A stretch of 64,000 bases of DNA from a virus. Lineage: Duplodnaviria > Caudoviricetes. Positions 8,937 through 20,465 of the stretch are shown here, piece after piece. A program made the position numbers and the translations under genes. The stretch spans positions 29,024-93,023 of the IMG/VR virus record IMGVR_UViG_3300029288_000005; one strand, written 5' to 3'. The number at the start of each line of letters is the position of its first letter. Position 1 is the first letter of the stretch. The notes under the pieces were generated by a model. The model did no database searches. It saw nothing but the letters and a program-made list of their open reading frames with translations, and was not told where the DNA came from.

Positions 8937-9095
8937 ATGAAAAAACAAACACTTATCACTGTACTAAAAGAAACAGCAGAAACTTTGAGGGGAATTAAGT
9001 TTAATCCTTACCACGACTCAGAAGGCAGGTTCTCTACTGGAGGCTCAGGTGGTCCTAAACTTGCTCCTGATACAGGTGGTGGTACAGGTGGAGGG
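8937..9095 (+). repeat. Dispersed leader cassette, copy 1 (full)
   Basis: High DNA and protein identity to the copies at 10976, 15145 and 32957. Confidence 0.95.
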
Positions 9096-10276: not shown

Positions 10277-10979
10277 AATAAGATTTGGTATTGTTTTGAC
10301 GTATAAGTGCAACATGGCTTGCAAGGGCTGTAATAGGTTCTTGGATGTAAGGCCATGGGAAGACTCTGATATTACGTTGGATGGATTGGTTGAGGGATAT
10401 AATAGGGTACAGGCAACTGGATTGGTTATCCACAAGTGCCGGGTCTCGGGAGGGGAGCCTCTGCTACATCCCAGATTTGTTGATTGCATGACTATTATAC
10501 AATCAATGTGGAACCAGAACTATGGTGGGCGTACTTGTGTATTTACAAATGGAAAACTCAACAGACCAGAGCCAGCGGGATGGCGTTACAATGTGTCAAC
10601 CAGTGATGGGAAAAGTTACTACTTCCACCCTCCTATGATATCGCCGTATGATCTTGGTATGGAACCACTACAAGGTATGACAATAGCTTGTAGAAGGCAG
10701 TTGGGGTGTGGGAGATTGTTTGATGCCTTTGGTTTCTCTTTCTGCGTGTTTGCTGGAGCCATTGGTAGATTGTTGGGAGTAGATCCTTACAGTCCCACAC
10801 CAGTTGTAGAAGGCATATACGATATCTGTAAGCACTGCGTTTTCTCTCAGGGAATTAAGAAGGCGTTTGTGCTGTTTGATGCAGCAAACAATGGGGAAAT
10901 AGAGTATCCCACAAAGTCTTACCAGTCGGCACTGGAGAAAAAGCAAAATTTTCAGTTAAAGAGGTTTTTTGAAAGATGA
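10266..10979 (+). CDS. Radical SAM protein
   Basis: CNMACKGC (CxxxCxxC), SGGEPLLHP, FTNG, extra C-terminal Cys. Confidence 0.9.
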   Translation: MPVEIRFGIVLTYKCNMACKGCNRFLDVRPWEDSDITLDGLVEGYNRVQATGLVIHKCRVSGGEPLLHPRFVDCMTIIQSMWNQNYGGRTCVFTNGKLNRPEPAGWRYNVSTSDGKSYYFHPPMISPYDLGMEPLQGMTIACRRQLGCGRLFDAFGFSFCVFAGAIGRLLGVDPYSPTPVVEGIYDICKHCVFSQGIKKAFVLFDAANNGEIEYPTKSYQSALEKKQNFQLKRFFER

Positions 10980-11128
10980 AAAAACAAACACTCATTACTG
11001 TACTCAAAGAAACAGCAGAAACTTTAAGAGGAATAAAGTTTAATCCTTACCATGACTCCCTAGGACGTTTTGGAACTGGTGGAGGTGGTCCTAAGTTGGC
11101 TCCTGATACAGGAGGAGGTACTGGAGGT
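10976..11128 (+). repeat. Dispersed leader cassette, copy 2 (full)
   Basis: MKKQTLITVLKETAETLRGIKFNPYHDSLGRFGTGGGGPKLAPDTGGGTGG. Confidence 0.95.
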
Positions 11129-11799
11129 ACACGTTCAAATATAGTTGAATTGGAGCAAAAACAAATATCAGATGAACTTGAAGATCAAACTGATGAATGG
11201 GAGGAAATGCTTTTTGAAGATGCAAGAAAGGCCAATTTGAAACATGGTGTTCCTACTATGGCGGAATCGATAAATAAATGGGTGGGTATAGTAGAGCTTT
11301 TAGAAAACATATAGCCGAAGAGAATTTTGACGACGAAATAGGGGAGGAGGCAAAGCTATTTATGAAAGCCCTGAAGTTGGCCCCTGACTATAAAGGTGAG
11401 GTGTATAGAGGATTGAAAGCTGATTCTAACCAAGCAAACACTATATTGAAAGCCATAAAGTCTAAAGCTGAGTATTGGCAGGAGAAAGCTCCTATGTCTT
11501 GCTCTTTGGATCCTGAAATTGCAATAAAGTTTGCTGGTGCTCGCAAGGATAAACCGTCTGAGTATGAAGTTCTGCTCAAAATCAAAACTAAATCAGGCAA
11601 GTACCTGGGTTCTTTGAATGAAGGGGGGGAGGAAGAAATCATCGCTATGCCCAAAAAGTACAAAATCAAATCCGCGCTTAGGCAACAGGAGGCCAATATA
11701 CATGTTAGATCGGTTTATGGGGACGAAGAGGGAATTGAAAAACCTATTTTGAAGACAAAAGTAACTTTTGATTACATTATTGAACTGGAGGAAGTCTAA
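10976..11799 (+). pseudogene. Leader-cassette protein 2: ADP-ribosyltransferase, split by a -1 frameshift near 11280 (ORFs 10976-11314 and 11278-11799)
   Basis: Full leader; the second frame carries VYRGL, MSCSLD and GGEEEII (R-S-E ART motifs); the frames join at tgggtgggtat. Confidence 0.7.
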
Positions 11800-11942
11800 T
11801 GTCAAAGCAAAAACACAGAATGGACTTGACCATGGAGGAGGCCCTAGATACCGTAGAGCTACTTGACGAGGATGGCAACGTCATTGACTTGGGCACTGCC
11901 CAAGAGAAGACAGAGGAAACTAAGAAAACAGATGAAGAGTAA
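11799..11942 (+). CDS. 47-aa acidic peptide downstream of ART (putative inhibitor)
   Basis: TAATG overlap with the ART stop, GGAGG upstream; MSKQKHRMDLTMEEALDTVELLDEDGNVIDLG...; below the ORF-track length cutoff. Confidence 0.6.
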   Translation: MSKQKHRMDLTMEEALDTVELLDEDGNVIDLGTAQEKTEETKKTDEE

Positions 11943-11992
11943 TTGTGATGAAAAACAAACGCTCAGTGTTAGCAAACTAACAAAGGATGAGA

Positions 11993-12334
11993 ATGAGCAT
12001 ATTAGAAAACCTTCCACATAAATGTTCTGCCTATCTGAAGACCTGTACACAAGGATCTATGGGCGGGGGAAAGGATGCTCTATCTTTGGTCTTCTCGGAT
12101 CGAGACTGTTGGAGACAGCCTGCTGGGGACAGTGAACAGGAGTTGGCGTTAAAAAAGGGAATAGATATTACACACAAGGTGTATTTTGTTGAAAATCCAT
12201 CGTTGGACAACCGACATGTACTGGTATTTTCCGATGGGACGTACGATGTAACAAGCAGACCATTTCCTGATGCTACCCTAGGTCTTAGTATTGTGTGGAA
12301 GGTAATGGTCAACCACAACTCTGCAAAGGATTGA
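11993..12334 (+). CDS. Head closure/stopper protein (SPP1 gp16-like)
   Basis: About 113 aa beta-barrel pattern, GSMGG loop, ITHKVYF, GTYDV. Confidence 0.6.
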   Translation: MSILENLPHKCSAYLKTCTQGSMGGGKDALSLVFSDRDCWRQPAGDSEQELALKKGIDITHKVYFVENPSLDNRHVLVFSDGTYDVTSRPFPDATLGLSIVWKVMVNHNSAKD

Positions 12335-12339
12335 TTATT

Positions 12340-12693
12340 ATGAAAGTTGTCTGTAAAAATCTTGAAGCTTTTAAGAAGAACCTCACTAGTGCAAGAGATC
12401 TTATAGAAGACTCAATCTTTAACTCTACTGTATGGGTAGATACTAGTGAGGTTCTGCAAGGAGAGTTTGGGCAATCTGTCAAATACCTTATAATCTTACA
12501 AATGGGGGCAATAAAGATCTTCCCAAACGGAGGAGAGGCTTTGGTAGAATGTGGAATAGAGTGTGGTTATGACTTCAGAGACGCCACGCAAGATTATGAG
12601 GGAACTGAGAAGGCAGAAGACCTGAAGAAAGAGCTAACTGTATTCTGTGAAGAACAAGGCTTTACGTTGAAGCCTGGTATGTTGTATGAGTAA
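12340..12693 (+). CDS. Hypothetical protein
   Basis: ORF with AAGGA RBS. Confidence 0.6.
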   Translation: MKVVCKNLEAFKKNLTSARDLIEDSIFNSTVWVDTSEVLQGEFGQSVKYLIILQMGAIKIFPNGGEALVECGIECGYDFRDATQDYEGTEKAEDLKKELTVFCEEQGFTLKPGMLYE

Positions 12694-12713
12694 CCTAAAA
12701 GGAGAACCGAAAG

Positions 12714-13190
12714 ATGTTAGAACATCAAGACAAGAAACAAGCCACCACTCATTTTATTTCTGAGTTCAAAAAAAAGACTGAGAAGTGTGATGGTTTTTTA
12801 GGTTTCGTAGTTGTGCGAAACCAAGACAAGTTGGAGTTGTGTGTTCGAACAACTCACAACTTTATGCGAAACGACTTCGTTGCAGTGATTGCACTTCTTG
12901 CTGAGAATTTGCAATCTGAGTTGGTTGAGACTAGGGGCATTGGCATGGGTGTGCCCGGTGGGGAAACTCCACAGCCACCCAAACCTCTACCTAGAGTAGA
13001 TAGAGAAGAGCTTCTAAAGTCAATCTTTCCCACCCAACGTTTGCAGGAGAACGAGGCGCCTGGGTTCAACAAGAAACCTTTTGATATCCACGAGGGACCA
13101 ACAAGACTCCCTCAGCAGATTGACAATCCCTTTAACCAGCAGGAAGATAATACCCCTAAGCAAGAAGACAAACCGGGGGAAGTGCAATGA
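12714..13190 (+). CDS. Hypothetical protein
   Basis: AAGGAG RBS; Pro/Gln-rich disordered C-terminal half. Confidence 0.65.
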   Translation: MLEHQDKKQATTHFISEFKKKTEKCDGFLGFVVVRNQDKLELCVRTTHNFMRNDFVAVIALLAENLQSELVETRGIGMGVPGGETPQPPKPLPRVDREELLKSIFPTQRLQENEAPGFNKKPFDIHEGPTRLPQQIDNPFNQQEDNTPKQEDKPGEVQ

Positions 13191-13564
13191 AGTGGTTGGA
13201 ATATCTAGGAATACGTTTCAAGTTGCATAGAATCTCTAAAGCTCGACAGATGGCAGAAGCCTGGCAGAAAGAAGCAAAGTGTCTGCTAAGAAACTTAGAG
13301 AAAAAAGAAGAATTGTTGTTACTAGAGTCCTCAACTCTCAAACGTTTGGTTGAAGACGTAGAGAACAACATTCGAGAAATTAAGTCGTTAAGTGCCAAGT
13401 ATGAAGTGTCTCTGGAAGCGTTGAGGAATGAGAATAAGGTAATGGCTGAGGTGACCATACCAGCTCTAACTTCAGCGTGTCAACTGGGACTTGAGCGATG
13501 GAATGCGGAGACAGCAATACAAGTGAGAAGGCAAATACTGCCCGAGTCAAAAAGTAAGGAGTAG
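13187..13564 (+). CDS. Coiled-coil protein
   Basis: ATGA overlap; heptad pattern. Confidence 0.6.
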   Translation: MKWLEYLGIRFKLHRISKARQMAEAWQKEAKCLLRNLEKKEELLLLESSTLKRLVEDVENNIREIKSLSAKYEVSLEALRNENKVMAEVTIPALTSACQLGLERWNAETAIQVRRQILPESKSKE

Positions 13565-13569
13565 TGTGT

Positions 13570-15144
13570 ATGAACGCTCTAGTAGAATCACTCAACACAA
13601 GAAAAGCTTTTATTTCAACTGTAAGAAATCAAGCAATTGAAATGAAGGCTTCTGGTATTACACTAGATATTGGTGGGGAGGGTACCCTCAGTTCACTGAA
13701 CGAGTGGCAAAGCAGATCAAAGTACTCCCAACGATATGCTCTGTGTCGAGGCATTGTCTACTCAGCGGTAAATGCACTCGCTTCCGAAGGGGCTTCACAG
13801 CCCATAGAAGTAAAGCAACACACTAAGAAAAAGAAGCTACGTGGTACGAAGGCTGCTAAAGATGAGTTGGAAGTGTTGACTGAGCATGTACTAATAGACT
13901 GCTTTGAACGACCCAACCCTATACAGAACAAGTGGCAGTTCTTGTATTCGTTTATTGCAAATCTGGCACTCACTGGTTGGGCGTATATCATAGGAGAGGT
14001 AGACGAAGAGGACAAACCAGTCTTCTACAGCATCCCCACAACGTGGATAACACCAGACCATACAAAAGGACCGTTCGAATCTTTCAAACTACAAAATCCA
14101 CACAAGCCCGGATCTGCTTCAGAGATGTTGGATAAGCGGAACGTGGGATTTGCTTACTTGCCTGATCCGTCGGACATTATGGGAGCACTTTCTCCTGCTT
14201 CTACGCAGTTGCCCGCTATCCAGTCCAACGATAACATCTGGCAGAGTAGGTTGCAGTTTTTTAAGAACGGTATTTTTCCGGGATCTTTGGTTACAGTTGG
14301 ATCTAATCCACACCCGGGAGTTCCTGCTGGTATACGACCAAGGTTAACAGGTGTGCAGAGGCAACAAGTATACAGCATGGTTAAGAAGTTAATGTCTGGA
14401 ATTGCAAACTACGGGGATCCAGCAATACTTGATGGGTTGATTGAAAAGATTGAACCGTTATCGATGAATAGCAAGGAGATGGGTTGGGAGAAGTCAGAAC
14501 CAGCAACCAAGGCAGCAATCCTCAGTGCTTTTTGTGTACATCCCTACATATTGGGAGAAGCAGTGAGCGTGGGAGGTTATGCTCAAGTAGCAAACATAGA
14601 GAAGAGGTTCTATAAGAGGGTCAATACATACTTGTCGATGTTTGATACATTGATGACTTGGTTTGTGCAAGATCTACTAGAGGACACTTCGTTAAAAGTG
14701 TGTGTGAAAGAATGTAACGCTAGTGACCCCACGTTGGATTGGGCTAACTGGAAGTATGCTCGAAGTAATGGTGATATTACACAGAATGAACTTCGAGAAA
14801 AGTTGGGCTTGCCCCCTGATGAAGATGATAATCAGAGCGCCATTGCACCACAACTATTAACACCAATCGTACAACTGTTGGCACAGAAGGCATCTGGTGC
14901 TATTACTGTTGAGCAGATAGAGAATATATTGGTGGGTCTGGGTCTACCAACCGACCTAGCCAAGAAGGTGGCTGGAAAGGACATGCCTCCTCAACAACCT
15001 GTAGAAGGTATGGAAAAACCTGGGAAATCCCCAGAAGAGAAACCTACTGAAACAGAGTTACTCAAAGAAGCAGTAAATCAGTTTAAGAGTTTGCCCGATA
15101 AAGAGATGGGTCGGTTAAAGTCTTTGTTGGAGATAATTGCATAG
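13570..15144 (+). CDS. Portal protein (HK97 family)
   Basis: VYSAVNALA, ERPNPIQ, LALTGWAY, FFKNGIFPG, ILSAFCVHPYILG, ITQNELREKLGLPP. Confidence 0.92.
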   Translation: MNALVESLNTRKAFISTVRNQAIEMKASGITLDIGGEGTLSSLNEWQSRSKYSQRYALCRGIVYSAVNALASEGASQPIEVKQHTKKKKLRGTKAAKDELEVLTEHVLIDCFERPNPIQNKWQFLYSFIANLALTGWAYIIGEVDEEDKPVFYSIPTTWITPDHTKGPFESFKLQNPHKPGSASEMLDKRNVGFAYLPDPSDIMGALSPASTQLPAIQSNDNIWQSRLQFFKNGIFPGSLVTVGSNPHPGVPAGIRPRLTGVQRQQVYSMVKKLMSGIANYGDPAILDGLIEKIEPLSMNSKEMGWEKSEPATKAAILSAFCVHPYILGEAVSVGGYAQVANIEKRFYKRVNTYLSMFDTLMTWFVQDLLEDTSLKVCVKECNASDPTLDWANWKYARSNGDITQNELREKLGLPPDEDDNQSAIAPQLLTPIVQLLAQKASGAITVEQIENILVGLGLPTDLAKKVAGKDMPPQQPVEGMEKPGKSPEEKPTETELLKEAVNQFKSLPDKEMGRLKSLLEIIA

Positions 15145-15303
15145 ATGAAAAAACAAACACTTATCACTGTACTCAAAGAAACAGCAGAAACTTTGAGGGG
15201 AATAAAGTTCAACCCTTACCACGACTCAGAAGGTAGATTCTCTACAGGCTCGGGATCTGGTGCCCACATGGCTCCTGATACAGGAGGAGGCACTGGTGGT
15301 GGA
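15145..15303 (+). repeat. Dispersed leader cassette, copy 3 (full)
   Basis: MKKQTLITVLKETAETLRGIKFNPYHDSEGRFSTGSGSGAHMAPDTGGGTGGG. Confidence 0.95.
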
Positions 15304-16362
15304 AGTAAGTTGGAAGAAAGAAAATTCTCTGATGAACATGTTAATAAACTTGCAAAAGCATGGAAGAATCTGAGCAAGAAAAAGTCAGAGGCTGAATTGG
15401 CTAAGTTGGGGGAGGCTGATAGATTAGAGTTAGCAAAAAAAATCTCATGGGATTTTCATAGGTACAAACCAGAAAGAAAAGAAGAGGTGTGGAAAACTCT
15501 AGGTGATTTAGAAAAGAGTGAGATTATAAAAACACAATCTGCTTTTTGGAATGATCTTAGTGATGCAAAAAAATCAGAGCTACTGGGTGTAATGAACAAT
15601 AAAGAAAAAGAGGAGTTGATAAGTGGTGGAAAGCGTGTTAAAGAGGAGATGGAGAAGTTTAATCAAAAGATTCAAAATAAGGTGGATGTAATACATTCTC
15701 AGGAAGCACAACGAATTAAAGAATCAGAAGATAAATTGATGCCTAGTAAATCAGATTTACTAGATAGACAGAAGGCGAGGGTTCGAATAGATCCTGAAGA
15801 AGGCAGTTTTGATACGTTGGCGGTTTTGCAGAAAAGAAATTACACTAAGAATGTTAGTGATGCTGCTAAAAGTGGATTTACTGAATATTCAAGGAGTGAA
15901 CAAAGTAGAAAAATAAATGGTGCTCTGCGAAAGGGAAAATCTGTAGAAGAAATAAGTCCTGAGATTGCAGAGTTGCAAAAAGCATGTAAATCCCCACTAG
16001 AATCACCCATGATTGTTTATCGAGGAATTGATTCTAAGTTTGCGAGTGAAAATTTTAAGAAAAACACTGTGTATGAAGCCAAAGGATTTGTCTCAACATC
16101 AATGAATCTGGGACAAGCTGTTCGATTTGGAATGGAAGGACTAGCTAAAGAACCTGTAGGAAGCCAAAAAGCTGTTGCAGTCATGGAAATAAAAGCAAAG
16201 AGTGGGTTTTTGGCTGCTCCGGGAGCAGGTGTGCACTCTGGGGAATATGAGGTTTTACAGGCACATAATACACAATACAAGTTAATAGGCATTGATAATA
16301 GTGTTCCTTTACACAGGGGAAGCAGTGAAAATTTAGTAGTTTATATGTTCGAGGAGGTATAA
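15145..16362 (+). CDS. Leader-cassette protein 3: VIP2/Alt-like ADP-ribosyltransferase
   Basis: Full leader; INGALRKG, IVYRGID, FVSTSMN, GEYEVL (R-STS-ExE). Confidence 0.88.
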   Translation: MKKQTLITVLKETAETLRGIKFNPYHDSEGRFSTGSGSGAHMAPDTGGGTGGGSKLEERKFSDEHVNKLAKAWKNLSKKKSEAELAKLGEADRLELAKKISWDFHRYKPERKEEVWKTLGDLEKSEIIKTQSAFWNDLSDAKKSELLGVMNNKEKEELISGGKRVKEEMEKFNQKIQNKVDVIHSQEAQRIKESEDKLMPSKSDLLDRQKARVRIDPEEGSFDTLAVLQKRNYTKNVSDAAKSGFTEYSRSEQSRKINGALRKGKSVEEISPEIAELQKACKSPLESPMIVYRGIDSKFASENFKKNTVYEAKGFVSTSMNLGQAVRFGMEGLAKEPVGSQKAVAVMEIKAKSGFLAAPGAGVHSGEYEVLQAHNTQYKLIGIDNSVPLHRGSSENLVVYMFEEV

Positions 16363-16364
16363 AG

Positions 16365-16502
16365 ATGAAAAAAGACGAGAAAAAACCAGAGAATAACGAA
16401 GACAGGAAAGTGCGAGCAGAGAGGTTCTACGAAGACGAACCTGATGCGTTTGTTATAGTGAAGCCAAAGAAACAAGATGACAAGCAAAGAAACAAAAAGT
16501 AA
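16365..16502 (+). CDS. 45-aa charged peptide downstream of ART (putative inhibitor)
   Basis: GAGGAGG RBS; MKKDEKKPENNEDRKVRAERFYEDEPDAFVIVKPKK...; below the ORF-track length cutoff. Confidence 0.6.
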   Translation: MKKDEKKPENNEDRKVRAERFYEDEPDAFVIVKPKKQDDKQRNKK

Positions 16503-17514
16503 AATAGTTTCTACGTTAGTTGAAACTACTACTCTAGCATTGAAACTAAAGACCAACCTCCTGCAAAAACAGATACGCAGGAAGGTTACAGATAAGGTTC
16601 ACAAGTTACAGGTTGCTAAGGTGGAGAACAAGCTAGCGAAAGCCCTAGAACCAGTGTTCAAACAAGAGCTGCTAAAGTCTGCTGATAGGTTACGGGAGAT
16701 TGTACCACAAGAGAAAGCAAAAGCCAATCCCGTAGCAGAAGCCATAACAGCACAGGTTCTGTCCCATGACCAGGAATTGAAGAATAAGGTAGTCGATGCT
16801 GCTGTTCCCATTCTGGCAGTAGAGATGCTAAAGTCCATGAAGATGGTATTTGTGGAGAATGGTAGAAAAGACATCAGAAACATCCAACAGAAGTTCAACC
16901 CCCATCATGACTCTCTAGGTCGTTTTGCTACTGGTTCAGGCTCAGGCGCCCACATGGCTCCTGATACCGGCGGTGGTACGGGTGGAGGTTCCCTCTTGGT
17001 AGGATCCAGTCAAAGAAACAAAGACGAGCTGTATAAGGAATATCGGGAAGTTTATAAAGAGAAAAAGGGAACAGATCCTAAAAATAATGAAAATTTGGTA
17101 AAAATTGCAGGTGTGAAAATAGTTTGTCCTGGGAATATAAAAAGCACCGCAGAAAGAATGTTGGCCCATGTTATTGCAGACAGCAAAACTTTGATGGATG
17201 GGTTATCGGGAGTGACTGTAACTGTAAAAAACATGGGCCAGCTTTATGGCCAGAGCAAGGGAAACAATCTTTTTGTAGATGAGAAGGTGGTAAAGGAAAA
17301 GGGAGCTGGATTTGGAGCTTCAATTGTAAGGCATGAATTGGAGCATACTTTTCTTACAAGAAAAAAGGTACCATCAGGAAAACAAGAGCCCAGAGTACGT
17401 GCAGTAACAGGCATGTTTGCTGTTGCAAAGTATAGTAGTATGGCAAAAACAAATCCTGCTGATGCAGAAGGGTTTTTGGCAGCAGCAAAAGCTTCTGGAG
17501 TTAAGATAAGATGA
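16477..17514 (+). CDS. MuF-like N-terminal helical region + cassette + HExxH metallopeptidase cargo
   Basis: Helical ENKLAKALEPVFKQE region; internal KFNPHHDSLGRF...GGGTGGG at 16891-16989; C-terminal SIVRHELEHTFL...QE. Confidence 0.7.
   Translation: MTSKETKSKIVSTLVETTTLALKLKTNLLQKQIRRKVTDKVHKLQVAKVENKLAKALEPVFKQELLKSADRLREIVPQEKAKANPVAEAITAQVLSHDQELKNKVVDAAVPILAVEMLKSMKMVFVENGRKDIRNIQQKFNPHHDSLGRFATGSGSGAHMAPDTGGGTGGGSLLVGSSQRNKDELYKEYREVYKEKKGTDPKNNENLVKIAGVKIVCPGNIKSTAERMLAHVIADSKTLMDGLSGVTVTVKNMGQLYGQSKGNNLFVDEKVVKEKGAGFGASIVRHELEHTFLTRKKVPSGKQEPRVRAVTGMFAVAKYSSMAKTNPADAEGFLAAAKASGVKIR
16891..16989 (+). repeat. Dispersed cassette, copy 4 (internal, from K-FNP)
   Basis: KFNPHHDSLGRFATGSGSGAHMAPDTGGGTGGG. 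Confidence 0.95.
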
Positions 17515-18365
17515 GTTATAGTTGGCCTTGTTTATTTGCAGATCTTGATAAAGATTCCATCGAGTTACCAAATGGATGGAAGCCATTGAAACCGCTTGAT
17601 AAAGAGGGCGGTTCTATGTATACAAGAGCAGAAGAAAATGAAAAACAAACACTACTAAAAGCACTCAAAGAAACAGCTGAAACTCTGAGAACTATCAAGT
17701 TCAATCCTTACCACGATTCTTTAGGTAGATTCGCTACAGGTGGGTCGGGAGGAGCTGGTAGGAACTTACAACTATCTCGTGATATATTGGAGCAAACACA
17801 GAAGGATCTTAGGGAACGGAGTTTTCTAGTAGATCGAGATGGAAAAGTTGTATCTGATGTTAGTATTGGGGAAAAAGAAGAGAACGTACTAGAGTCAGGG
17901 GTGGATAGACCATATACAGAGAGTAACAATACCGAGGGGGCGGACTTAAATCTGATACATACACATCCCATTCATACTGATGAAGAAAACCCATATACGG
18001 GATTGGGTGTGGGGGATGTTCTGAGTCTCAAGAATTCTCCTGGTATAAACAGCATTACAGCCATTGATTTAGATGGTCGTGTTCATTCCATAACAAGGGC
18101 CAGTGATGATAAGGAGTTTTTGAAAAAGTACTGGCTTAGATCGGGGGAAATTGAATCGGATCTGCGGTCTAAGATAATCGACGAATTTATTGAGAACAAG
18201 ATAACAAAAGAAGAAGCCAATAGAAAGAAACGACTAATACCCAAAGATTTGATAAAGCAGCTTCTTAAAGAGGGTTTGTTATCAAAGGAAGAGGAATGGG
18301 ATTTGTTGGATGGGAATAAATCTTACAGTCTGAAGTTTAATAACAGTGGAACAGTAAATGCCTAG
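17511..18365 (+). CDS. Short N-terminal peptide fused to leader cassette + JAB/MPN-like cargo
   Basis: KQTLLKALKETAETLRTIKFNPYHDSLGRF at 17643; RERSFLV...LIHTHP...GLGVGD (E, HxH, D; the usual Ser is Gly). Confidence 0.6.
   Translation: MSYSWPCLFADLDKDSIELPNGWKPLKPLDKEGGSMYTRAEENEKQTLLKALKETAETLRTIKFNPYHDSLGRFATGGSGGAGRNLQLSRDILEQTQKDLRERSFLVDRDGKVVSDVSIGEKEENVLESGVDRPYTESNNTEGADLNLIHTHPIHTDEENPYTGLGVGDVLSLKNSPGINSITAIDLDGRVHSITRASDDKEFLKKYWLRSGEIESDLRSKIIDEFIENKITKEEANRKKRLIPKDLIKQLLKEGLLSKEEEWDLLDGNKSYSLKFNNSGTVNA
17643..17753 (+). repeat. Dispersed leader cassette, copy 5 (divergent)
   Basis: KQTLLKALKETAETLRTIKFNPYHDSLGRFATGGSGG. Confidence 0.9.
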
Positions 18366-19974
18366 TACAGCATCCGAGTGGTTGGCAAGTAACCCGAACC
18401 AAGTGGCAGAACTACGAGAAGTTCTGATTGCCAATGGTGTCTCTGTTGACTTTTTGACTGAGTATCCCGACTGGATGTTGGAAAACATAGCACAGCAGTT
18501 GACAGACACTTTCTCCCAAAGCTACTGGGACGACATCGAGAAGAGTTATGGAAACGACGTGAACGAGTTACTAAGAGCTGGTATTCGTAATGGAAAGTCA
18601 ATGGGTGACATCGCTCAAGAGATGACCGACCTCAGCGACGAGTATGCAGAGTCCCGGGCCATGAACATAGCCCGTACGGAATCAGGCCATGCACTGAACG
18701 GTGCCAGAAAAGCCTCTATGGATGAGATAGTAAATGATCCACAGCTAGTGGGCACATTACGGCCTACGTGGCAATCGGCCCTAGGAACCACCACCAGGGA
18801 TTCGCACGCAATACTGGACGGTGTACCGGCTGATAAAGAGGGAATGTGGACACTGTCAGGCTACAAGATTCCATGGCCTGCTCATTATAGTCTTCCACCA
18901 GGTGAGCGTTGCAACTGTCAGTGCACCATAGTCATAGAGTATGGGTTGCAGGACCTAGAAGCTCGGGATATGATAGAGCAATACAATCAGCGAGTGGAAG
19001 AATATAATAAGGATGTAAGGTTAAGGGAGAAATTCAATCCTTACCACGACTCTCTAGGTAGATTTTCTACTGGTTCAGGCTCTGGTGCTCATATGGCCCC
19101 AGACACTGGTGGGGGTACTGGTGGAGGTTCGTCAGATGGTGGAAAGATGCAAGAGGTGACATATGATAAGGACAGCAAGAAATGGTTATTAGGTAATGGA
19201 AAAGAACTACCTGACAACGTGCCCAGAATACCTCCCGCATGGACTGGTGTACGGGTAAACACCAGCAAGAATGCGGATCTGGTAGTAGTGGGTGTGGATG
19301 CCAAGGGAAGAAAACAGAGCATATACAGTGAAGCACATTGGACTAAGGCTGCGGAGGTTAAGTTTGCAAGGGTTAATGAGTTGCGGTCCAAAGTCAAGAA
19401 CATCGAAAAAGAAATCAAAGGGGACTTAAAAGTTCCTGAGCGTAAGGAACAAGCAGCCTGCTTGAGGTTGGTTCTGGAAACAGGTATTAGACCAGGCAGT
19501 GACTCAGATACGGGAGCCGCTAAAAAAGCATACGGGGCCACTACATTAGAAGGCAGACATGTAAAGGTGGTCAATGGTGAAGTTAGACTGCAGTTTGTTG
19601 GTAAGAAGGGTGTTGACATTGATATACCCGTAACAAACAAGGCGCTGGTGGCAGACCTGTTAAAGCGAAAGAAGAAGAGTGGTGATAGTGGTAAGTTATT
19701 TAACACAAGCAATAGAAAGCTGCTCCAATATACACACACTAAAGATGGTGGCTCTTTCAAAACAAAGGACTTCCGCACTGCCAAAGCCACAACCATGGCC
19801 ATTAAGTTGGTTAGTTCCATGTCCAAACCCAAAAACCCGAAAGAGTACAAAAAGTCGGTGAAAGAAGTAGCCACGGTTGTGTCACAGTCGTTGGGTAACA
19901 CACCCACCATTGCACTACAATCGTACATACACTCAGCAGTGTTTACCAAGTGGCGTGCCTCAGCAGGAGTATAG
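18358..19974 (+). CDS. MuF (SPP1 gp7-like) head morphogenesis domain fused via the cassette to type IB topoisomerase
   Basis: MuF: RAMNIARTE, W...TTRDSH, ERCNCQCT. TopIB: RIPPAWT, DAKGRKQSIY, GIRPG, FVGKKG, KDFRT, LGNT...SY (R-K-R-N-Y pentad). Confidence 0.92.
   Translation: MPSTASEWLASNPNQVAELREVLIANGVSVDFLTEYPDWMLENIAQQLTDTFSQSYWDDIEKSYGNDVNELLRAGIRNGKSMGDIAQEMTDLSDEYAESRAMNIARTESGHALNGARKASMDEIVNDPQLVGTLRPTWQSALGTTTRDSHAILDGVPADKEGMWTLSGYKIPWPAHYSLPPGERCNCQCTIVIEYGLQDLEARDMIEQYNQRVEEYNKDVRLREKFNPYHDSLGRFSTGSGSGAHMAPDTGGGTGGGSSDGGKMQEVTYDKDSKKWLLGNGKELPDNVPRIPPAWTGVRVNTSKNADLVVVGVDAKGRKQSIYSEAHWTKAAEVKFARVNELRSKVKNIEKEIKGDLKVPERKEQAACLRLVLETGIRPGSDSDTGAAKKAYGATTLEGRHVKVVNGEVRLQFVGKKGVDIDIPVTNKALVADLLKRKKKSGDSGKLFNTSNRKLLQYTHTKDGGSFKTKDFRTAKATTMAIKLVSSMSKPKNPKEYKKSVKEVATVVSQSLGNTPTIALQSYIHSAVFTKWRASAGV
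19030..19128 (+). repeat. Dispersed cassette, copy 6 (between MuF and TopIB)
   Basis: KFNPYHDSLGRFSTGSGSGAHMAPDTGGGTGGG. Confidence 0.95.
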
Positions 19975-19977
19975 ACT

Positions 19978-20154
19978 ATGGTAGAGATATTCGGAGACGA
20001 CCAGGACGTCAACTTTGGTGGGGTTGACAAGCCCGCTGTTGATTGGAGAAGCAATAACCAAGACGACGGGGACCCTGATGATGAGTTGTTGAGACCCACA
20101 CCATTGGATGTGATAGCAATTCTAGGTTTTGATCCACTGGAACTGGAAGAATGA
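19978..20154 (+). CDS. 58-aa highly acidic peptide downstream of TopIB (putative inhibitor/DNA mimic)
   Basis: AGGAG RBS; MVEIFGDDQDVNFGG...DDGDPDDELLRPTPLDVIAILGFDPLELEE; ATGA overlap with the next gene. Confidence 0.7.
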   Translation: MVEIFGDDQDVNFGGVDKPAVDWRSNNQDDGDPDDELLRPTPLDVIAILGFDPLELEE

Positions 20155-20465
20155 TACACCCCGACATACAACAAGCAGTTTTAGAATGTAAAGGCAAGAT
20201 GTCGCAGCAGGCAATATCTGCCAGGTTTCACATATCACGTCAAACCGTTAGGAGTATACTAAGACGTGGTTATGTAAAGTATCAACCACTTGGTTGTACT
20301 GAGTACGATATTGCTGAAAACAAAGAGTCAAAGGAATACACACTGAAAGCAGGATGGACGGGAGCAGTTGAACGTTGCCACAAGTGTGGTAGATTGGTAC
20401 AGTTACCTTGCTTGGCGTGTAGGATTGAAGAAATGGCAAAAAGGAAACGCGGTGTGTTAGTATGA
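20151..20465 (+). CDS. HTH + Zn-ribbon protein
   Basis: MSQQAISARFHISRQTVRSIL; CHKCG...CLAC. Confidence 0.7.
   Translation: MIHPDIQQAVLECKGKMSQQAISARFHISRQTVRSILRRGYVKYQPLGCTEYDIAENKESKEYTLKAGWTGAVERCHKCGRLVQLPCLACRIEEMAKRKRGVLV

Follow-up and report, generated by a model that had tools for sequence, protein, structure and literature searches.

Small proteins beside the enzymatic head cargoes of a tailed phage: a probable acidic partner of a type IB topoisomerase and candidate partners of ADP-ribosyltransferases

Do the tiny charged open reading frames (ORFs) that directly follow enzyme genes in a phage head module encode dedicated partners of those enzymes? The question is raised by a 64,000-nucleotide (nt) stretch, hereafter the window, which comprises bases 29024–93023 of IMGVR_UViG_3300029288_000005, a 93,023-bp IMG/VR virus genome with direct terminal repeats; all window genes lie on the plus strand. 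Its head module contains seven cargo genes with a common linker motif (FNPYHD..GRF plus a Gly-rich stretch; seven occurrences versus 0.04 expected by chance), which connects a short N-terminal helix, MuF, or a 130-amino-acid (aa) N-terminal domain to unrelated cargo domains. The region appears to be a portal-proximal cargo block of a tailed phage, in which the shared motif would attach enzymes to the helix, MuF or the N-terminal domain, presumably for loading into the head. The original prediction held that four of the cargoes, namely two ADP-ribosyltransferases (ART1 and ART2), an HExxH peptidase and a type IB topoisomerase (TopIB), are each followed by a small ORF encoding a candidate cognate inhibitor. 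Three of these ORFs (S1, S2 and S4) exist as described, and the fourth, placed at 17511, is the start of the next gene. The explanation that best accounts for the data, somewhat better than evenly favoured, is a cargo block in which S4 is the partner of TopIB and S2 and S1 are partners of the ARTs. The pairing of S4 with TopIB is well supported by reciprocal neighbourhood, joint absence and complex prediction, whereas the case for S2 and ART is moderate and that for S1 weak.

The TopIB gene (18358..19974) encodes a 538-aa protein in which MuF (Pfam Phage_Mu_F, residues 67–191, E 1.1e-11) is joined by the linker motif to a topoisomerase domain (Topoisom_I, PF01028, residues 333–521, E 9.7e-20, 71.3 bits against a cut-off of 23.7). 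S4 (19978..20154) starts 3 nt past the stop codon of this gene and encodes a very acidic protein of 58 aa (isoelectric point (pI) 4.05; 17 Asp and Glu of 58). A word-index search recovered S4 homologs of 84% and 66% identity, each directly after a TopIB protein, and another homolog is present in locus L009 after a 53%-identical TopIB. Close and distant homologs thus lie directly 3′ of TopIB in L013, L014 and L009, and the four TopIB proteins differ at their N-termini, which are formed by MuF, an ART-PolyVal domain, a long unassigned region and a bare linker. The S4 frame compared with that of L013 gave 0.10 nonsynonymous and 0.44 synonymous differences per site (pN and pS). A profile built from four sequences and searched against 1.84 billion cluster representatives returned 754 matches at E≤1e-3, 124 of them at E≤1e-10; many are 50–65 aa long, and others carry the S4 domain at the N-terminus of longer proteins. 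The family consensus consists of DWR, an acidic run and TP.DV...LGFDP.

The association between S4 and TopIB holds in both directions. At viral loci found through S4, a TopIB domain ends no more than 120 nt upstream in 63 of 72, and S4 at these 63 loci is a separate small ORF (39), a separate ORF running into another cargo (20) or part of the same ORF as TopIB (4). Conversely, S4 lies directly downstream in 28 of 30 close TopIB relatives found through TopIB (E<1e-95), and in the remaining two the locus ends before the TopIB frame closes. More distant TopIBs gave no match to the S4 hidden Markov model (HMM); several of them precede divergent acidic segments with S4-like features. The surroundings of the pair vary widely. 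Where TopIB has a long N-terminal part, it is fused to the portal protein in 19 of 37 cases, to MuF in 3 and also to NUDIX, DUF2213, InPase and ART domains, and 19 further loci have a TopIB with only a short N-terminus; S4 is followed by MuF, prohead protease, pentapeptide repeats, NUDIX, ART, InPase, GNAT and others. The TopIB–S4 pair is the sole constant, while the fusion partner and the following gene change. In L008, a MuF protein 96% identical over residues 1–226 ends there and the next gene follows directly, with both TopIB and S4 missing. The module is common in environmental phages, where it forms hundreds of sequence clusters and is most often found on the portal protein. S4 homologs were not detected by tblastn among GenBank phages, in which a TopIB domain search found one distant match, in a Bacteroides phage, and megablast of the region found no match. 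The ESM Atlas returned only unnamed clusters for S4 (0.75–0.76), and Pfam, PHROGs and NCBIfam searches gave no match for S1, S2 or S4.

Among loci L023–L094, the portal C-terminus is the most frequent attachment point of TopIB–S4 (for example in L031, L057, L075 and L085), via an E.HPR...G.F-type linker motif; the "leader" thus serves generally to connect modules, exists in several sequence variants and is not only an N-terminal signal. L027 (3971–5581) has S4, linker and a pentapeptide-repeat protein in one fusion directly after TopIB. The pentapeptide-repeat fold is known for DNA mimicry and topoisomerase protection. The 104-aa gene that comes after S4 in the window (20151–20465) encodes a helix-turn-helix and a zinc ribbon, and it is kept in L008, L013 and genome G005, with or without TopIB–S4.

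To what surface of the topoisomerase might S4 bind? The TopIB model matches the Deinococcus and variola TopIB structures with Z about 20. Five residues (R116, K154, R211, N252 and Y261) are invariant in the domain alignment, and their positions align to the Deinococcus and variola enzymes, by which K154 and N252 correspond to the catalytic Lys and His/Asn, respectively, with Y261 as the nucleophile. Complex prediction, which had been suggested as a check for each pair, was run for S4 with TopIB and gave an interface score (ipSAE) of 0.62 versus 0.00 for the best of three controls; that mark was attained for 58 of 80 solved complexes and for 2 of 110 mismatched pairs, counts that are approximate here because own alignments were used. 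At least 51% of contacts agreed between runs, and the predicted local distance difference test (pLDDT) of the partner was at least 50. The predicted interface places S4 residues 34–57 against TopIB residues 66–73, 154–155, 157, 236–243 and 250–271 and takes in the equivalents of the catalytic Lys and Asn. An AlphaFold2 model of a natural TopIB–S4 fusion (L042) has a mean pLDDT of 90, with 84–90 over the C-terminal motif of S4; the N-terminal half of S4 was modelled at low confidence. In the predicted arrangement, the C-terminal half of S4 (TP.DV...LGFDP) would dock on the three C-terminal helices of the TopIB catalytic domain, touching the catalytic Lys hairpin, the catalytic Asn and residues beside the active-site Tyr, with the acidic N-terminal half nearby.

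Gene neighbourhood and models together suggest that the TopIB module has in S4 a partner of its own, which likely binds the enzyme. The complex prediction speaks to binding and not to inhibition, and an inhibitory role is close to an even call, falling just short of the balance. In that role, S4 would most likely stop TopIB from engaging DNA in the producing cell and, probably, also within the DNA-filled capsid, with release upon ejection and separation of S4 and TopIB. In its broadest form the proposal is that S4 founds a widespread family of TopIB-specific inhibitors, an acidic active-site plug acting in trans or in cis that silences a packaged topoisomerase in producer and capsid until ejection separates the two, and that S2 does likewise for packaged ADP-ribosyltransferases; this is put forward tentatively, as somewhat less probable than its negation. 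DNA mimicry by S4 may be conjectured from its composition (17 Asp and Glu of 58) and its predicted position in the cleft. S4 resembles DNA mimics of the Ocr and ArdA type in being small, very acidic and predicted in a DNA-binding catalytic cleft, but has no sequence or fold relation to them, and its target would be the phage's own enzyme rather than host restriction.

Several observations weigh against S4 as a classical inhibitor. At 24 of the 63 adjacent loci (4 + 20) S4 shares an ORF with TopIB or with the linker and cargo that come next, and two database proteins also hold TopIB and S4 in one ORF. In the natural fusions the linker motif is absent between TopIB and S4 and appears after S4; S4 is accordingly part of the TopIB module in packaged polyproteins, and by this arrangement it probably behaves as a packaged-polyprotein module and not as a classical unpackaged immunity gene. 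The idea that the small proteins escape packaging because they have no leader is contradicted for S4 by these 24 loci; although S4 is a separate ORF in the window, it probably travels with packaged material. S4 is also kept where the TopIB body is deleted (L046, L048 and L049), and S4 or its C-terminal half is likewise found without TopIB in L071, at the C-terminus of the portal protein, in L157, downstream of a tyrosine recombinase, and in the further contexts of L155 and L158. TopIB, moreover, is not an obvious toxin. Some of these points could be accommodated if S4 were a structural or positive-regulatory C-terminal module of TopIB, split off in some phages and serving folding, activity, DNA-site choice, loading or ejection instead of inhibition. 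The phage TopIB ends ∼15 residues past the catalytic Tyr, while the Deinococcus and variola enzymes run ∼45 and ∼25 residues beyond the aligned region; because the phage enzyme stops soon after the Tyr helix and the solved enzymes continue, S4 could be a detached TopIB tail, and its predicted docking site is formed by the helices around that Tyr. The same-ORF fusions without an intervening linker and the survival of S4 after loss of the TopIB body would fit as well. However, structural alignment to the solved TopIBs ends at model residue 286–288, before S4, and a sequence-profile search of the PDB with S4 found nothing meaningful and no TopIB tail. Among the predicted contacts are the catalytic Lys and Asn, residues that must be accessible to DNA, and the extreme acidity of S4 fits competition with DNA better than a structural role. 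A structural tail is on balance unlikely, and the reading of S4 as a TopIB-binding partner that may inhibit the enzyme is preferred.

Two of the loci without TopIB deserve description. In L157 (2622–3689) the C-terminal S4 motif is fused to a zinc ribbon, after the tyrosine recombinase gene; the catalytic folds of tyrosine recombinases and TopIB are related. In L153 (1300–3720), a contig from a deltaproteobacterial metagenome-assembled genome, an S4 homolog with no TopIB upstream lies directly after evenly spaced direct repeats resembling those of CRISPR (clustered regularly interspaced short palindromic repeats); this contig may come from a chimeric bin or represent the remnant of a phage.

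Are all three small ORFs translated genes? Their abutment to the upstream stop codon was borne out, with a 1-nt overlap for S1 and starts 2 and 3 nt past the stop for S2 and S4. Tight gene spacing is general in this phage genome, and stop/start abutment is therefore not special in itself. All three ORFs have a Shine-Dalgarno core, which is found at 33 of 63 long genes and 12% of random sites, and their codon-usage scores per codon (S1, 0.334; S2, 0.246; S4, 0.340) exceed the maximum of 0.179 among 69 off-frame control ORFs. That some of them are chance open frames without translation is improbable. The notion draws on the fate of the supposed peptide at 17511, which is indeed no gene of its own, and on S1, of which public data hold only identical copies so that selection is not measurable. 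It is countered by clear purifying selection and distant homologs for S2 and S4, by the Shine-Dalgarno core and above-control codon score of S1, and by the 187-nt gap that the otherwise tightly packed operon would have without S1. S4 is almost certainly a gene, S2 very probably so, and S1 probably. Of the three charged proteins, S1 and S4 are acidic and S2 is basic.

S2 (16365..16502) encodes a lysine-rich charged protein of 45 aa that starts 2 nt past the stop codon of ART2 and overlaps the next gene by 26 nt; it is net basic, with 15 Lys and Arg versus 12 Asp and Glu and a pI of 9.3. ART2 (15145..16362) is a 405-aa protein with a leader and an ADP-ribosyltransferase cargo matching PF03496 (ADPrib_exo_Tox) at E 2.8e-11 and 43.6 bits, above the cut-off of 23.4. 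S2 and its 89%-identical homolog in L015 differ at 16 nucleotides, 11 of them in third codon positions (pN 0.044, pS 0.462), a pattern that indicates purifying selection. The S2 family has seven members with an invariant ERFYE core, and by Pfam an ART gene adjoins S2 in 7 of 8 contexts. ART2 precedes S2 in the window and in L017, in which the 130-aa N-terminal domain follows with the HExxH cargo and with ART3, respectively. In L015, S2 is placed between ART3 and MuF, and in L023 between a leader-only stub and a series of N-terminal domain, ART, ART and TopIB. The N-terminal domain with an ART comes after S2 in L160, where the contig ends upstream, and in L161, where the portal gene is upstream. 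A radical-SAM-like gene precedes S2 in both L163 (genome G005) and L162; the gene downstream encodes a leader with an ART1-like cargo in the former and a homolog of the 11987 gene in the latter. The N-terminal-domain gene of G005 has a peptidase as its cargo and is not preceded by S2, which in that genome adjoins the only ART. Across five genomes the presence of PF03496 and of S2 agrees in all five, both being found in three and neither in two.

S2 is most simply read as a binding partner, an antidote or a chaperone, of ADPrib_exo_Tox-type ART cargo, and on the strength of these contexts the partnership may be given nearly, though not quite, even weight. The downstream N-terminal-domain gene was rejected as the partner of S2, given that S2 precedes MuF in L015 and that G005 has the N-terminal-domain gene without S2. 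What appeared to be a second copy of S2 fused before the ART2 leader (L017, 1491–1626) is most likely an assembly artefact, at a 10-N scaffold gap and the shared ATGAAAAAA start, and L018 is chimeric over its first 236 bases. A possible S2-like remnant, truncated and located behind a broken ART in L023, fell short of significance. The same locus contains, at 982–1185, a 60-aa ORF made of the leader helix, the linker motif, the Gly-rich stretch and 14 further residues, directly followed by an intact S2 homolog; this ORF looks like a cargo cassette minus its cargo.

The situation of S1 is complicated by a break in ART1. In the window, a 1-nt deletion splits ART1 into a 112-aa leader-only ORF (10976..11314), which is the 5′ part of the gene, and a 173-aa ORF with the catalytic part, a weak ART-like cargo (11278..11799). 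The deletion, at window positions 11278–11290, reads GGGTGGGT-ATAG versus GGGTGGGTGATAG in the sister contig L021 (1100–1125). ART1 is intact in L021, a JGI contig, and encodes 274 aa, while the deletion is found in the window, L022 and L016/L020, and thus in two other assemblies, from ENA and Logan. Possible readings of the break are a pseudogene, a polymorphism within the population, or a device for producing an ART without its leader. Intact ART1 matches phrog_16619 "minor head protein" (E 6.9e-8) and is 34% identical overall to the L163 cargo, which matches Pfam ADPrib_exo_Tox; ART1 has no Pfam match of its own.

S1 (11799..11942) is an acidic ORF of 47 aa (pI 4.3) whose ATG overlaps the ART1 stop codon by 1 nt; its Shine-Dalgarno core, codon score and position mark it as a probable gene and a candidate partner of ART1. 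Searches for S1 homologs in an index of 5.8 billion proteins, a scan of viral contigs with ART1, the genomes of four relatives and all loci examined returned only identical copies or nothing. In L163, a 54-aa acidic ORF in the position of S1 starts 1 nt after an ART1-like cargo, and L162 has neither an ART1-like cargo nor a small acidic ORF. S1 was also considered as a diverged member of the S2 family, and this was not supported: it scored 0.9 bits against the S2 HMM, and 375 of 1998 shuffled sequences scored as high. The pattern fits a fast-evolving partner of ART1, on thin evidence. S1 would probably play the role for ART1 that S2 plays for ART2, binding its cargo, if the partnership is real; that partnership is rather doubtful, though it merits consideration.

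A number of findings speak against S2 and S1 as ART partners. S2 is upstream of an ART in four contexts, as often as it is downstream; in L162 it has no adjacent ART, and in L023 it persists beside a leader-only stub. The agreement across five genomes is confounded by relatedness, the three genomes with S2 and PF03496 being close relatives. No small ORF follows the ARTs of L014 and L009 or the ART domains inside the L023 polyprotein, and S1 has no detectable similarity to the equivalently placed ORF of L163 (E 16). It is conceivable, although a minority view in our estimate, that S1 and S2 are ordinary small genes of the head module, either assembly accessories or ORFs at cassette boundaries, whose adjacency to ARTs reflects inherited gene order and insertion sites. 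Consistent with this, the neighbours of S2 vary, with five kinds upstream and four downstream, among them the portal gene directly before it in L161; it is basic, unlike typical acidic antidotes; and the genomes bearing it are all relatives. An adjacent ART gene is nonetheless the one constant over 7 of the 8 S2 contexts, and in G005 S2 stands beside the only ART and not beside the N-terminal-domain gene. In L015, S2 travels together with the 3′ end of a different ART, and gain or loss of the ART1-like cargo coincides with that of the small acidic ORF. These associations argue for S2, and with less force for S1, as ART partners. The expectation that homologs of each cargo are always trailed by the peptide largely holds for S4, with 28 of 30 close TopIBs, and holds only in part for S1 and for S2, which precedes ARTs as often as it follows them; some ARTs have no small ORF.

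No partner peptide was found for the HExxH peptidase. The frame at 17511, proposed as a separate peptide, is open for 284 aa without a stop, through the linker motif and into the JAB-like cargo, and gene callers on sister contigs also give 284 aa for this ORF. The supposed peptide is the first ∼35 residues of a single gene (17511..18365) with a short N-terminal extension, the linker motif and the JAB-like cargo. The preceding gene (16477..17514, 345 aa) encodes the 130-aa N-terminal domain, the linker motif and the HExxH peptidase-like cargo, whose only Pfam match is a weak one to Tox-MPTase3; the same N-terminal domain carries ARTs in L017, L023, L160 and L161. In relatives, a 78-aa ORF comes after an HExxH peptidase cargo in L164 (2165–3885; G005) and a 72-aa ORF after a DUF3626-like cargo in L008 (3–990); both pairs stand immediately ahead of a short MuF gene. 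The non-enzymatic cargoes at 8937 and 32957 were said to have no small partner; this was confirmed, as large genes of 265 and 297 aa come next.

How does this cargo block compare with other phage systems that deliver proteins? Phage T4 packages its internal proteins and Alt, enzymes that include an ART, via a short N-terminal capsid-targeting sequence and injects them. To our knowledge, no cognate small inhibitor of T4 Alt has been described. Unlike the T4 signal, the motif of the phage studied here also occurs inside proteins, between domains.

The closest parallel is provided by MuF toxins. An ORF of less than 150 aa follows 89.4% of 191 MuF toxin genes versus 25.5% of short MuF genes, and these ORFs were proposed to be immunity genes (Jamet et al. 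2017, PMC5576092). Bxa, the MuF-ART of a prophage, was shown to be neutralised both by a binding protein encoded next to it and by a hydrolase, and other small ORFs have been modelled onto toxin active sites (Alexei et al. 2024, PMC11699363). As in these systems (PMC5576092; Bxa-Bsi/BAH, PMC11699363), a MuF head protein with a C-terminal enzyme domain is followed here by a small ORF without a recognised domain, the short MuF of a close relative has no such ORF, and the predicted complex puts the small protein on the active site. The S4–TopIB pair thus combines an enzyme C-terminal to MuF, a co-conserved downstream small ORF and predicted binding, whereas co-conservation downstream is only partial for S2 and S1. 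The pair departs from the toxin–immunity scheme in that S4, fused at 24 of 63 loci, is not consistently a separate unpackaged polypeptide. Further differences are that the effector is a type IB topoisomerase, that most relatives attach TopIB to the portal or other domains, that S4 is often fused in cis to TopIB or the next cargo, that a short leader takes the place of MuF in the ART cargoes, and that S2 can precede the ART.

The cargo repertoire also recalls the polyvalent proteins of phages and conjugative elements, whose enzymatic domains are thought to be delivered with DNA (Iyer et al. 2017, PMC5512222). In both cases ART, zincin-like peptidase, JAB/RadC-like, NUDIX, InPase and MuF domains are strung together or arranged in a row in the head module, and the TopIB protein of one relative carries the Pfam ART-PolyVal domain; here, by contrast, the domains are often separate genes with a recurring linker motif. 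Term searches of PMC5512222 turned up neither a TopIB module nor a dedicated small partner domain, and topoisomerase is absent from the text of PMC5576092.

Small ORFs after phage head toxins are an established theme, and the TopIB–S4 pair appears to be undescribed. The pair and the S2 family are new members of a known concept, and the frequent cis-fusion of S4 is unusual. A TopIB cargo with its own conserved partner is mentioned in neither of the two key papers, and S4 matches none of the families in Pfam, PHROG or NCBIfam. Should S4 prove to inhibit TopIB, it would be a naturally occurring protein inhibitor of that enzyme that binds through a short, defined motif, and it could be used to test how phages keep a DNA-active cargo harmless beside their own packaged genome. 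The link between S2 and ARTs provides a second testable pair.

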